NCBI GenBank assembly: GCA_964016885.1
Contig: OZ024742.1
Coordinates: forward strand, 23,560,001-23,624,000
Direction of reading: 5' to 3'
From: Eledone cirrhosa
Taxonomy: Eukaryota
DNA: 64,000 nt
How positions within the stretch are numbered: the stretch's first letter is position 1; the number at the start of each line of letters is the position of its first letter. Position numbers and translations under genes: made by a program. This document shows, in pieces, positions 5,828 through 51,468 of this stretch. The notes under the pieces are model-generated. The model had not been told where the DNA came from. It worked only from the letters and a program-made list of their open reading frames with translations, and searched no databases.

Positions 5828-6768
5828 GAATAAGGTTAATATATATCTGAGGGTACTATGTACCCCCGGAAATATATAGTGTGTCTATGATTTAAGGTGG
5901 TTCTATGGTAATAATTTGATATACCAGAACTTAATATCAAGATAAGCAGAACAAGTAAAATTCAACCAATTTTTCAAAATAAATCAAAATTAATATACAA
6001 TTAAAATTAATCAAAATTAAAAAATATAATATAAATATTTACCTATTCAAATGGCCCTAACTGTACAGTTTCACGTTGCAAAACATTAGATATGTTTTGC
6101 AACGTGAAACTGTACAGTTAGGGCCATTTGAATAGGTAAATATTTATATTATATTTTTTAATTTTGATTAATTTTAATTGTATATTAATTTTGATTTATT
6201 TTGAAAAATTGGTTGAATTTTACTTGTTCTGCTTATCTTGATATTAAGTTCTGGTATATCAAATTATTACCATAGAACCACCTTAAATCATAGACACACT
6301 ATATATTTCCGGGGGTACATTGTACCCTCAGATATATATTGACCTTATTCAATATTCTCCAAGTATGTAGAGAAAAATCCTGTCGTTCTATCTAGTTGCT
6401 AAATATCTTTTTTGGTAGCGATCATAGACGACCAGTCTACGATTTCCCGCCTTCACTATACACCAACGTATTTATGGGTCACTTTCACGACCTTTCAGAC
6501 CTGTATTAGTTGGAGTGAGGTCATATATTTTATCGTTCCTGGGGTTTTTAACCCTAGGATAGGAAAATGCTTCTCTGATGATCTTTGCTTTTCCATTAAT
6601 ATCCACGTGATATCTAATGTTTTGCAACGTGAAACTGTACAGTTAGGGCCATTTGAATAGGTAAATATTTATATTATATTTTTTAATTTTGAGTAATTTT
6701 AATTGTATATTAATTTTGATTTATTTTGAAAAATTGGTTGAATTTTACTTGTTCTGCTTATCTTGATA
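5828..6768 (+). mobile_element. Retrozyme/pLTR-like insertion (family C): inverted partial copy plus 525-bp monomer plus partial repeat
   Basis: 5832-6088 is the reverse complement of 6092-6350; 6617-6768 repeats 6092-6243 (period 525); TA flanks. Confidence 0.8.
6569..6649 (+). ncRNA. Type I hammerhead ribozyme, family C
   Basis: GCUUCU-CUGAUGA(6575)-long stem II (UUGC/GCAA, CAUUA/UAAUG, AUAUC/GAUAU)-GAA-ACUGUACAGU-U-AGGGC; predicted cut after 6644 (GUU). Confidence 0.75.
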
Positions 6769-6876
6769 TATATATATATATATATATATATATATATATA
6801 CACAAGCTCACCAAACTTACTCTCCCCCACCCGCTATATGTGTGTATATATATATATATATATATATATATATATA

Positions 6877-7082
6877 GTTATGAAATAAACAACATAAGAT
6901 AATTATTTCATTCACCAGTGGTTTCTTGAAGACAGATGTTGTATCTGTCTTCAGTCGTCAGGATGGATAAAAAAGACATGGTGTTTTTATTAAATATGGA
7001 TTTGAAAATAAAATTCATGGAATATGAAAGTGAGGCTGAAAAAACAGGCGAAAAGGAAATAGGTGAAAAAAATAATAAAAAA
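6877..7082 (-). mobile_element. Family D left arm (inverted copy of 8695-8912) with degraded hammerhead
   Basis: Reverse complement of 8695-8912; the hammerhead at ~6907-6966 has GUG at the cleavage triplet and stem I mismatches. Confidence 0.75.
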
Positions 7083-7089
7083 TATATAT

Positions 7090-8673
7090 ATATGAAGACA
7101 AACATAGAATATTCGAAAATATTCTGTATGTTTATAATAAACATTTTGAAGACCTAATCGCTATAGAATAGAATACGTCACGTATTACAATTTGAGATTC
7201 TCGATAAAAGCAAGGGAAGTAACCTACGCGTTTCATTCTTATTAGAAATCATCAGGATTACATATCCAATGCTTTTATCGAGAATCTCAAATTGTAATAC
7301 GTGACGTATTCTATTCTATAGCGATTAGGTCTTCAAAATGTTTATTATAAACATAGAAGAATATTTTCGAATATTCTATGTTTGTCTTCACATATATATC
7401 GCTATTTCAGAGCATTAAATCCAAATTATAATTTCTGCCGGACCGGCTACCGCTCTTTCAAACCAGTTCCTGTACACAGCTAAGTATTCTATAAGTCTCT
7501 AGCTGTGTCGTTCTCGATAAAAGCATTGGATATGTAATCCTGATGATTTCTAATAAGAATGAAACGCGTAGGTTACTTCCCTTGCTTTTATCGAGAATCT
7601 CAAATTGTAATACGTGACGTATTCTATTCTATAGCGATTAGGTCTTCAAAATGTTTATTATAAACATACAGAATATTTTCGAATATTCTATGTTTGTCTT
7701 CACATATATATCGCTATTTCAGAGCATTAAATCCAAATTCTAATTTCTGCCGGACCGGCTACCGCTCTTTCAAACCAGTTCCTGTACACAGCTAAGTATT
7801 CTATAAGTCTCTAGCTGTGTCGTTCTCGATAAAAGCATTGGATATGTAATCCTGATGATTTCTAATAAGAATGAAACGCGTAGGTTACTTCCCTTGCTTT
7901 TATCGAGAATCTCAAATTGTAATACGTGACGTATTCTATTCTATAGCGATTAGGTCTTCAAAATGTTTATTATAAACATACAGAATATTTTCGAATATTC
8001 TATGTTTGTCTTCACATATATATCGCTATTTCAGAGCATTAAATCCAAATTCTAATTTCTGCCGGACCGGCTACCGCTCTTTCAAACCAGTTCCTGTACA
8101 CAGCTAAGTATTCTATAAGTCTCTAGCTGTGTCGTTCTCGATAAAAGCATTGGATATGTAATCCTGATGATTTCTAATAAGAATGAAACGCGTAGGTTAC
8201 TTCCCTTGCTTTTATCGAGAATCTCAAATTGTAATACGTGACGTATTCTATTCTATAGCGATTAGGTCTTCAAAATGTTTATTATAAACATACAGAATAT
8301 TTTCGAATATTCTATGTTTGTCTTCACATATATATCGCTATTTCAGAGCGTTAAATCCAAATTCTAATTTCTGCCGGACCGGCTACCGCTCTTTCAAACC
8401 AGTTCCTGTACACAGCTAAGTATTCTATAAGTCTCTAGCTGTGTCGTTCTCGATAAAAGCATTGGATATGTAATCCTGATGATTTCTAATAAGAATGAAA
8501 CGCGTAGGTTACTTCCCTTGCTTTTATCGAGAATCTCAAATTGTAATACGTGACGTATTCTATTCTATAGCGATTAGGTCTTCAAAATGTTTATTATAAA
8601 CATACAGAATATTTTCGAATATTCTATGTTTGTCTTCACATATATATCGCTATTTCAGAGCATTAAATCCAAA
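7090..8673 (+). repeat. Retrozyme-like tandem array 1 (family E): 312-bp monomer, ~4.5 sense copies plus inverted 5' piece
   Basis: Hammerheads start at 7534, 7846, 8158 and 8470 (period 312); 7090-7270 is an inverted partial copy with a minus-strand hammerhead at 7219-7261; TA flanks. Confidence 0.92.
7534..7576 (+). ncRNA. Minimal type I hammerhead ribozyme, family E (also 7846-7888, 8158-8200, 8470-8512 on +; 7219-7261 on -)
   Basis: GUAAUC-CUGAUGA-U UUCU aaua AGAA U-GAA-ACGCGU-A-GGUUAC; predicted cut after GUA at 7570; stem I is extended by the outer 15-bp pair UUCUCGAUAAAAGCA/UGCUUUUAUCGAGAA. Confidence 0.88.
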
Positions 8674-8823
8674 TATATATATATATATATATAAATATTT
8701 TTTATTATTTTTTTATTATTTTTTTCCCCTATTTCCTTTTCGCCGGTTTTTTTTCAGCCTCACTTTCATATTTCCAAAATTTTATTTTCAAATCCATAAT
8801 TAATAAAAACACCATGATTTTTA

Positions 8824-49360: not shown

Positions 49361-49427
49361 AATTGCCTTGTCTGACGAACGAATGAGGACGTTTCTTATT
49401 CGGGAAACCTCTGGCAATGAGGTAATT
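49361..49427 (+). ncRNA. Type I hammerhead, family I; probable pLTR ribozyme of the upstream Penelope; one core substitution
   Basis: AAUUGCCUUGU-CUGACGA-A CGAAUGAGGA cgu UUCUUAUUCG G-GAA-ACC ucu GGC-A-AUGAGGUAAUU; U16.1 is replaced by C. Confidence 0.75.
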
Positions 49428-50159
49428 ATATTGTATTGTTTATTATAAATATATATACATACATATATATATATATATATATATATATATATATATATAT
49501 ATATATATATATATATATATATATTTATATATATATAAATATATATATATATATATATATATATATATATGGGATAACAAGTTATCGGTATAGGTAATCC
49601 AGTTAGAGTATTCCGCGTTGTGGATAGTTTTAACGTACGGCTTTGTTTGCGTCAACAAGATGTTTTCACAGTTATGCAGTGAGTTCGTTGTAATTACTCT
49701 GCAGGTTATACTTGGAATAATAATAGTTAAAGAAAGAAGAGTAACACGGTAGGCTGTACAATATTGTACAGCCTACCATGTTACTCTTCATTTTTTAACT
49801 ATATATATATATATATATAAATGAAAGGTATAGAAAATATTGTAGCAAAAAGCCAACAGTATTCCATAATATAAAAAAAACGTCACTTTCTAATATATAT
49901 ATATATATATATATATATATATATATATATATATATATATATATATATATAAGAAAGTGAGGTTTTTTTACAAAATGAAAAGTAACCGAGGTGTCCTACA
50001 CGAGTGAAAGTATAAAGAAAAAAAGATGAAATCGAAAATGCAACTGGAGTCTAATTTTTTTTAAATTATATATATTTATTTGGTTCCTTTACCAGCTTCG
50101 CAGTTCTTCTGCTTTTCAAAGGTAGAGTTGACATGGAGGTCTGTAGTTTTTCTCACATT

Positions 50160-50520
50160 TTTTCCGTTTAATGTTTTCGGTGCGCCCGGCCGATTAACTC
50201 ACTCGACATGCAAATTGGGCTGCTCAGCCTTTAATATGCATAAGGAAAATATATACTTTCAGACGTTCAATCATCGGGCAGGAAGGTATGCGGTGCTGAC
50301 GATAGCTAATAAGCTCGAAATTAGTACATCGTTCCCTTGTCAGTGTTGAACAAAAAGTGCAACGATGCTTGCTAAACACTGTACGGCTTAATTCGGGATG
50401 TTTGTTTACAAACATACCGAGCATTATAATAAATGTTCGATGAATACATGCGTACATATATATATGTGTGCATGTATGTATATATATACATACTACTGTA
50501 CGTTTGTATACATATATACT
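50160..50520 (+). mobile_element. Diverged family K monomer with hammerhead at 50290-50332; an inverted partial copy lies at ~48195-48480
   Basis: GCGGUG-CUGACGA-U AGCU aaua AGCU C-GAA-AU ua GU-A-CAUCGU; the body aligns by eye to 58060-58480. Confidence 0.75.
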
Positions 50521-50597
50521 TATATATACATATATATATATATATATATATATATATATATATATATATATATATATATATATGTATATATATATAT

Positions 50598-51468
50598 AGG
50601 ATATGTGTTCCTTCACGCACAAGGCGCTAAGGTACGCATGTATTGTCCAACCAAATGCCAGTGTGGTTCAATGGCAGGTTAATAAATTAACGAGGCAGAA
50701 CAAATATAAACAAGGTTTAGCAAATAATGAAAAAGTTTCAAAATAAACATCATCCACTCTCATCCCAGGAACAGATTTGATAGCGCTAGTTCGTAATTTA
50801 AATTCAGGAATTTTATATTCTTCGAATGAAAAGAACCTTCTGACGAGAATCTTTCTTTGCAACGAAGGCCGTATGGTCTCCGTTTATTTTTGGGATTCGA
50901 AACCGATCGGTAAAGGTAACTATAGTAGGGAAAGTCAATTTTTTAAAATTTATTTTGAAACTTTTTCATTATTTGCTAAACCTTGTTTATATTTGTTCTG
51001 GCTCGTTAATTTATTAACCTGCCATTGAACCACACTGGCATTTGGTTGGACAATACATGCGTACCTTAGCGCCTTGTGCGTGAAGGAACACATATCCTAT
51101 TATCACCGTCTCCTCTATGTTGAGAACAAATTTGGTCGCTCTGACTGCTGCTAGTGATAGCTGCGGCTGGTTTGACCTACCTCCTTCTGCCTCTATCTTT
51201 ACTTCGGCCCTTGATAAACCTGTTTCTACATCATCCACTCTCATCCCAGGAACAGTTTTGATAGCGCTAGTTCGTAATTTAAATTCAGGAATTTTATATT
51301 CTTCGAATGAAAAGAACCTTCTGACGAGAATCTTTCTTTGCAACGAAGGCCGTATGGTCTCCGTTTATTTTTGGGATTCGAAACCGATCGGTAAAGGTAA
51401 CTATAGTAGGTAAAGTCAATTTTTTAAAATTTATTTTGAAACTTTTTCATTATTTGCTAAACCTTGTT
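50598..51468 (+). mobile_element. Family J insertion: inverted piece plus two hammerhead-bearing repeats, 481-bp period
   Basis: 50598-50745 is the reverse complement of ~50950-51098; 50748-50990 repeats at 51229-51468; TA flanks. Confidence 0.85.
50835..50917 (+). ncRNA. Type I hammerhead, family J (second copy 51316-51398)
   Basis: ACCUU-CUGACGA-GAAUCU...GGAUUC-GAA-ACCGAUCGGU-A-AAGGU; fully canonical core, palindromic stem III; predicted cut after 50912. Confidence 0.88.

Follow-up and report, generated by a model that had tools for sequence, protein, structure and literature searches.

The present work concerns a 64,000-nucleotide (nt) stretch of the Eledone cirrhosa genome (assembly GCA_964016885.1, contig OZ024742.1, positions 23,560,001 to 23,624,000, forward strand; hereafter the window), in which short noncoding elements are inserted as inverted, often partly tandem copies, among them two arrays of a retrozyme-like family that we call E. 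The window is AT-rich animal DNA, dense in microsatellites, and self-BLAST revealed many locally inverted segments across it. From these, 20 inverted loci were picked by hand, 18 aligned plus the two E arrays. Locus labels other than E are our own; the family letters of a first-pass annotation, made from the sequence alone, carried no coordinates. Short-spacer hairpins numbered 18 in the window and 0 in each of five local shuffles, so the inversions are not a product of chance; several of the 18 are TA-satellite matches. Hammerhead cores were located with our own pattern scan for a minimal type-I core. An Rfam scan of the window gave no match at the gathering score, hammerheads included; by E value it gave 472 matches, and the 150 listed were all microRNA models on TA repeats or hairpins.

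Family E forms two arrays, each consisting of a long arm and a shorter inverted arm.

7093..7284, minus strand: short inverted arm of E array 1 (E1), 0.6 unit, meeting the TA flank at monomer position 132
7270..8673, plus strand: long arm of E1, 4.5 units of 312 nt, with a minimal type-I hammerhead in each full unit
10531..13808, minus strand: long arm of E array 2 (E2), 10.6 units of 310 nt
13806..14483, plus strand: short inverted arm of E2, 2.2 units, with 3 nt of microhomology at the junction

The composition of array 2 is therefore as previously described (10.6 plus 2.2 units). With units of 310-312 nt and a GC content of 34-36% in the 2-kb bins of 8001-14000, E lies within the 150-450 nt and low GC expected of retrozymes, and the minimal hammerhead core with a palindromic stem III was found in 17 E units. 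By these features E is a predicted non-long-terminal-repeat (non-LTR) retrozyme family, a class defined and tied to Penelope-like elements in PMC7229834 and bioRxiv 10.64898/2026.07.22.740005. An exact 27-nt E pattern had 0 matches in metagenome and viral contigs.

On the monomer, the two long arms share an end at position 167-168 after the hammerhead cut, and the two short arms share one at position 132; agreement of both ends to within 1 nt would arise by chance with a probability of about 1e-4. The first-pass annotation had claimed common end points for the two arrays, and this is borne out. The monomers of E1 and E2 are set apart by 12 substitutions and a 2-nt deletion, and the junctions and flanks differ too; the two arrays are independent insertions with both ends in common. 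The spacing of the end pair is 35-36 nt, and these common end points are the known Penelope tail. Each short arm bears the alleles of its own array. The inverted arms had also been said to stop at an internal cacatatatat, which is incorrect: both read ttca/TATA, where the internal C at position 133, before ATATATAT, is replaced by the T of the flank.

In 13 of the 20 loci both 3′ ends face outward, as judged by hammerhead polarity (nine full cores and four half cores read by eye). The nine are 1141-1599, A, B, E1, E2, C (with a relaxed core), D, G, and J. These 13 show the Penelope-type layout, a partial tandem plus an inverted 5′-truncated copy placed head-to-head. Three loci face inward, tail-to-tail around a TA tract, and four are without orientation, so the earlier statement that the 3′ ends point outward in all families holds for the majority only. 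The loci other than E, with one solo copy, include the following.

5828..6086, minus strand: short inverted arm of locus A, its 3′ end at 5828 and not directly on TA
6092..6769, plus strand: long arm of locus A, 1.3 units of 525 nt with a hammerhead core at 6575, a 5-nt spacer, and 2 nt of microhomology at the junction
6877..7083, minus strand: left arm of the older family B; E array 1 lies inside the TA tract between the B arms
8690..8978, plus strand: right arm of family B, hammerhead at 8830, 65-nt extension
15369..16311, polarity unassigned: locus K, inverted arms matching at 94.5%, 337-nt spacer, 45-nt extension
18951..19967, long arm on the minus strand: locus C, with a relaxed hammerhead at 19240, an inverted arm of 64 nt at 19904-19967, and a 126-nt extension
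20008..20233, polarity unassigned: hairpin insertion, 22-nt spacer, 86-nt extension
20278..20698, plus strand: locus D, head-to-head, hammerheads at 20379 (minus) and 20508 (plus), 12-nt spacer, 89-nt extension
20729..20875, unstranded: hairpin insertion with an 8-nt spacer and a 73-nt extension; its half core was read by eye
21848..22821, unstranded: tail-to-tail pair, a counter-example, with a central TA tract and inward half-cores at 22403 (plus) and 22470 (minus)
22859..23053, unstranded: family X copy 2 (X2), ends as in copy 1 (X1, 1679-1853), 77-78-nt extension, other junction
23078..23244, plus strand: solo copy of family D, ending 5 nt short of the last shared base of the D short arm
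30834..31440, plus strand: locus G, short arm on the minus strand at 30834-30920, long arm of 1.1 units of 457 nt, hammerhead at 31284
31857..32719, unstranded: inverted pair of about 104 nt, probably tail-to-tail, flanking a 650-nt TA tract
49571..49802, polarity unassigned: perfect hairpin insertion, 0-nt spacer, 152-nt extension
50596..51473, plus strand: locus J, short arm on the minus strand at 50596-50747, long arm of 1.5 units of 481 nt, hammerheads at 50840 and 51321

Among the inward-facing loci, the half-cores of 21848-22821 read CUGAUGA and point inward around the TA tract, while 31857-32719 and 49874-49969 are probably tail-to-tail, as judged from base composition and shared ends only. 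The head-to-head, back-to-back layout is thus real, yet it is already known for Penelope-type elements, and the loci add to the known kinds of non-autonomous Penelope-like insertion and retrozyme array, with an inverted copy and a tail as already described. At 6877-8978, where the young E array 1 sits in the central TA tract of the older inverted pair B, one TA insertion is nested in another.

The target flanks are TA tracts, sequence in which target-site duplications are unreadable, and we scored the microhomology between element and flank. This test omitted the three inward loci and 56672-56988 (without continuing template); X2 and E2 were excluded from the per-family counts, and B was conservatively scored as 0. 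Of 14 families, 8 have TA microhomology of at least 3 nt at the short arm; the expected number is 1.5 (P = 1e-5), or 2.9 (P = 0.0025) if a lenient null always grants the better phase. The corresponding figures for long-arm and solo ends were four of six, against 0.8 (P = 0.003) or, leniently, 1.5 (P = 0.04). Such microhomology at both ends fits priming from the two ends of the break. The short arms at 5828 and 30834 stop outside a TA tract. The junctions between arms also carry microhomology in all five loci whose continuation is known (15 nt in E1, derived from the monomer's own inverted repeat; 3 in E2; 2 in A; 2 in G; and 1 in J). The two arm ends of one locus lie 35-152 nt apart (45-152 nt in loci other than E), and X1 and X2 again have both ends in common and different junctions. 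In single-copy loci the two arms overlap almost completely, and in four loci the tail-less arm reaches further 5′, by 7, 8, 8, and 106 nt. Accessibility of the start sites in predicted circular folds was mixed (29th to 92nd percentile, nine ends) and was not used.

Ten of the 13 ends with at least 2 nt of microhomology read AT/T, against 4.2 expected (P = 0.0009, post hoc). This pattern speaks for a model in which an inverted or concatemeric DNA intermediate is cut at AT/T by a GIY-YIG endonuclease and joined to the TA target, so that one end or both would record a cut in DNA rather than a start of reverse transcription. An origin of this kind was suggested for the tail in the available text of PMC8557442, and a 5′-ATT-3′ cutting preference is given in that of PMC11167929. 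However, the same text of PMC11167929 maps the tail ends to start sites of the reverse transcriptase (RT). Furthermore, the E short end does not lie at AT/T, and the targets are pure TA tracts containing no ATT. We therefore regard endonuclease resolution as unlikely.

To look beyond the window, one E monomer was compared with 4 of 15 sequencing runs, two of them raw reduced-representation data; the best run shares 0.35 of words, and the runs may come from another individual, a close relative, or another species. Among the loose ends listed, a TA end behind 7711 occurred in 273 and 230 reads of the two raw runs and in at least seven contigs of a third, which indicates that the short-arm end recurs in other E copies. 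A C-to-T change at 7703 was present in 221 of 4017 and 231 of 3133 reads, numbers close to those of the loose TA end although the two were not linked read by read, and this suggests that the flank base usually wins over the internal C. Such a replacement would be expected of a C-bearing strand that consisted of RNA and was later discarded. E1 alleles make up about 5% of reads at several sites, and that both E1 arms carry these rare alleles argues for one template instead of two random RNAs. At 7603, 7736, and 7742 reads end on AATT sites, in all likelihood where a restriction enzyme cut during library preparation. These ends mask the long-arm end; the loose consensus at 7736 is TA-like in one run (agreement 0.46) but not in the other.

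The reads also bear on whether the inversions are artefacts, either chimeric joins made in repeats during assembly or hairpin-read artefacts of sequencing. Neither the E1 nor the E2 junction of the window was among the joints listed in the reads of the four runs, as an artefact would have it. On the other hand, an opposite-strand E joint at 7470/7698 was seen in 98 and 110 reads of two samples, with a single start in each, and another at 7541/7690 in 2 and 3 reads of the same two raw samples; a contig filed under another organism code contains a joint at 7529/7584, close to the E1 junction. Given joints at identical coordinates in the raw reads of two samples, ends that recur in independent copies, and arms of older loci that differ by up to 10% and hence are not copies of one read, an artefact seems to us very improbable.

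The best reading of these data, and one in which we place a little more belief than doubt, is that both ends of the cut DNA prime on one RNA. In this view a TA-targeting Penelope-like RT/endonuclease would act in trans to mobilize the elements, which would be non-LTR retrozymes and non-autonomous Penelope-like elements. This enzyme, probably a dimer, would nick both strands of a TA tract, and the two DNA 3′ ends would begin reverse transcription on a single RNA at two family-specific sites 35-150 nt apart. Base pairing with AU-rich RNA over 2-6 nt may assist the start; the observations themselves are the end pairs and the microhomology. Both enzymes would then travel in the same direction with strand displacement, and the two cDNA ends would be joined via 1-15 nt of microhomology, yielding a head-to-head insertion with a one-sided tail. 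If the template were a circular or multimeric retrozyme RNA, either arm might run for several rounds, and the array would be born at insertion; for the arrays, we infer a circular RNA. The fixed end pairs of independent copies (E1/E2 and X1/X2) count for priming from both ends, as does the E spacing, which matches the 30-40 bp tail that PMC11167929, in its available text, maps to two RT start sites used on both strands. The solo D copy ends beside the D short-arm site, so such a site can act as a start site, and the array-specific haplotypes of the E short arms support one shared template.

The same layout can be produced by cDNA fold-back, and to this extent the earlier proposal that both break ends prime on the same RNA, although favored by the fixed end pairs, the TA microhomology, and the flank T, is not settled by layout. 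Here, the 3′ end of one target-primed cDNA would snap back, in many cases at a hairpin close to the ribozyme, pair through 1-15 nt of microhomology, and be extended on the cDNA itself, with the other break end joining later at a TA-like motif. At the level of DNA, this corresponds to the “self-priming on an antisense template” put forward in the available text of PMC3846280. It accounts for the near-total overlap of the arms and for a haplotype common to both of them, and the three TA-centered tail-to-tail pairs suggest that DNA ends do fold back here. Plain fold-back cannot, however, make the staggers of 7, 8, 8, and 106 nt seen in four loci, nor does it fit the replacement of the internal C by the flank T, seen in the two E arrays and, it appears, in the majority of reads, or the use of the short-arm site by the solo D copy. 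In unit 2 of E2, moreover, the long arm has a variant that the short arm lacks at the nearest fold-back register, a weak point given that the variant may post-date the insertion. We consider fold-back a serious rival, though the less probable of the two.

Several observations nonetheless weigh against priming from both ends, beginning with the three inward loci and the absence of the window's own E junctions from the listed joints. Five loci (C, G, J, E1, and E2) are nested or mappable as nested, as fold-back predicts; nine have spacers of only 0-22 nt, and two junctions lie in natural hairpins (E1 and X2), although two enzymes stalling together on one RNA would likewise give small spacers. 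The 106-nt stagger rests on an unverified tail and one of the 8-nt staggers on a half core read by eye; those of 7-8 nt could be palindrome-tip deletions, and the C-to-T change could be a CA slippage deletion. Summed microhomology is significant under the first null (P = 0.001 for short arms, 0.03 for long-arm and solo ends) but not under the lenient one (P = 0.07 and 0.12). Of 16 short-arm ends, 5 score 0 for microhomology, and E, strictly counted, has 1 nt. The extensions are mostly longer (45-152 nt) than the 30-40 bp in print, and a second copy or unit shows them to be element sequence only for X, E, A, G, and J. Finally, the available text of PMC11167929 describes RT initiation without target homology, in an AC-rich stem-loop. 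The first-pass annotation had one break end annealing to an internal UAUAUA. The E short arm begins 2 nt past a perfect 8-nt AUAUAUAU match, across a mismatch, so that annealing alone does not set the E short-arm site.

Several further junctions deserve description. Three family H copies (49813-50596 and 57003-57217) end on one base next to a TA tract, and at 50150-50162 one H copy is fused to a diverged family I copy through a short T-run overlap. This fusion could be a head-to-head join of two different RNAs, which fold-back would be unable to produce, or it could be one natural unit bounded by internal TA tracts. In four loci (1278, 19904, 20834, and 56834) one arm starts a few bases from the predicted hammerhead cut, and several further junctions sit in ribozyme stem II; possibly, these starts reflect run-off or stalling of the RT at the ribozyme. 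Family I also forms an array at 57244-59044, with a 494-nt unit and hammerheads at 58189 and 58683; an unrelated insert of about 555 nt at 57421-57975 seems to break it up. The hammerhead cores at 49372 (plus strand, within 48190-49440) and 5421 (minus strand, 5376-5421) and the family I copy at 48190-48481 have no obvious inverted partner.

In many respects the loci resemble endonuclease-containing Penelope-like elements. As described in the available text of PMC3846280 and PMC8557442, these carry an inverted truncated copy head-to-head, palindromes at the junction, and a one-sided tail (31 bp in the former, 30-40 bp in the latter), and they share TA targeting and hammerheads near the 3′ end. 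Unlike them, the loci here are noncoding, with extensions of 35-152 nt and an inverted arm of up to 2.2 units. The Penelope-like protein Poseidon PAc, according to the portion of PMC11167929 available, nicks and extends both strands of AT-rich DNA in vitro, uses two internal RNA start sites that match the tail, and is a predicted dimer; that portion gives no model for inverted insertions. Whereas its initiation needs no homology, most ends here carry 2-6 nt of TA microhomology. Metazoan non-LTR retrozymes share with E the tandem low-GC monomers of about 310 nt, a type-I hammerhead in each, and the Penelope link, and no account of inverted arms or fixed end pairs appears in the available text of PMC7229834 (where “inverted” occurs 0 times) or of bioRxiv 10.64898/2026.07.22.740005. 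The preprint, in that text, discusses local array amplification by unequal crossover; two opposite multi-unit arms of one haplotype instead favor arrays made at insertion.

The first-pass annotation had likened the insertions to L1 twin priming, and in both cases a second RT would be primed from the other break end with the help of microhomology, with further microhomology at the junction. The hallmark of the L1 form, in the available text of PMC11702581, is a pair of pieces that adjoin on the RNA to within 1-10 bp. The arms in this window instead overlap almost wholly, with a fixed second site 35-150 nt away from the first; among the five tandem loci, only G (14-nt overlap) comes near to having one arm start where the other ends. 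L1-type adjacency of the pieces is thus rejected. The twin-priming reading as such is reasonable and better supported than could have been known when it was made, and it differs from the L1 form. In open-access literature listings, with subscription papers outside the search, no paper applied twin priming to these elements.

A possible source of the machinery lies elsewhere in the window.

46582..47705, plus strand: frameshifted remnant of an autonomous Penelope-like open reading frame, C-terminal part, with GIY-YIG-like motifs and a CxC-x5-C linker recognized by eye

The linker was read by eye against the description of the Hydra clade (C-terminal GIY-YIG, CxC-x5-C linker, no CCHH). Pfam searches of three frames of the remnant gave no significant match, and PF26215 was present in 49-92% of the members of its protein-atlas matches. 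Self-BLAST gave no link between the remnant and the inverted families of the window. Its sequence suggests that Penelope-like machinery exists in this genome, and the remnant itself is a candidate partner only.

The remainder of the window is likewise repetitive. A SINE-like (short interspersed element-like) repeat of about 200 nt, which we take to be octopus-like from its look, occurs in many copies and both orientations (14811-15010, 29439-30553, 37015-37225, 38978-39220, 42593-42810, 56474-56676, and 59161-59382). A GC-richer stretch at 23900-29400 resembles, on the minus strand, a decayed non-LTR retrotransposon, an impression from reading the sequence. Pyrimidine-rich tandem repeats of 86 and 130 nt lie at 41836-42412 and 16687-16921, and the pattern scan detected no ribozyme in them. 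E array 2 and locus K are flanked by a satellite of short palindromic units with TA runs between them (14488-14694, 15237-15368, 16303-16669, and 10458-10532).

New here are the TA microhomology of the short arms, the flank T in place of the internal C, the recurrent TA end in reads, and the haplotype shared within each array. A broader proposal, tentative and in our estimation short of an even chance, is that the inverted pseudo-LTR (pLTR) and the tail generally arise when a Penelope-type dimer primes from two ends on one circular retrozyme RNA. Rolling-circle reverse transcription from the two break ends would then produce animal retrozyme arrays in a single step, and the stagger of the nicks would set whether copies lie head-to-head or tail-to-tail. 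The mechanism of tandem and inverted Penelope-like insertion is termed undefined in the available text of PMC8557442, and multi-unit retrozyme insertions that are short, young, and fixed at both ends preserve a compact trace of the insertion reaction. They offer sharp tests, namely whether arms are nested or staggered, whether they carry common RT errors, and which strand wins at a mismatch in the priming site. If the reading of two-ended priming is true, the formation of the tail, the inverted copy, and the retrozyme array would be unified in one mechanism.

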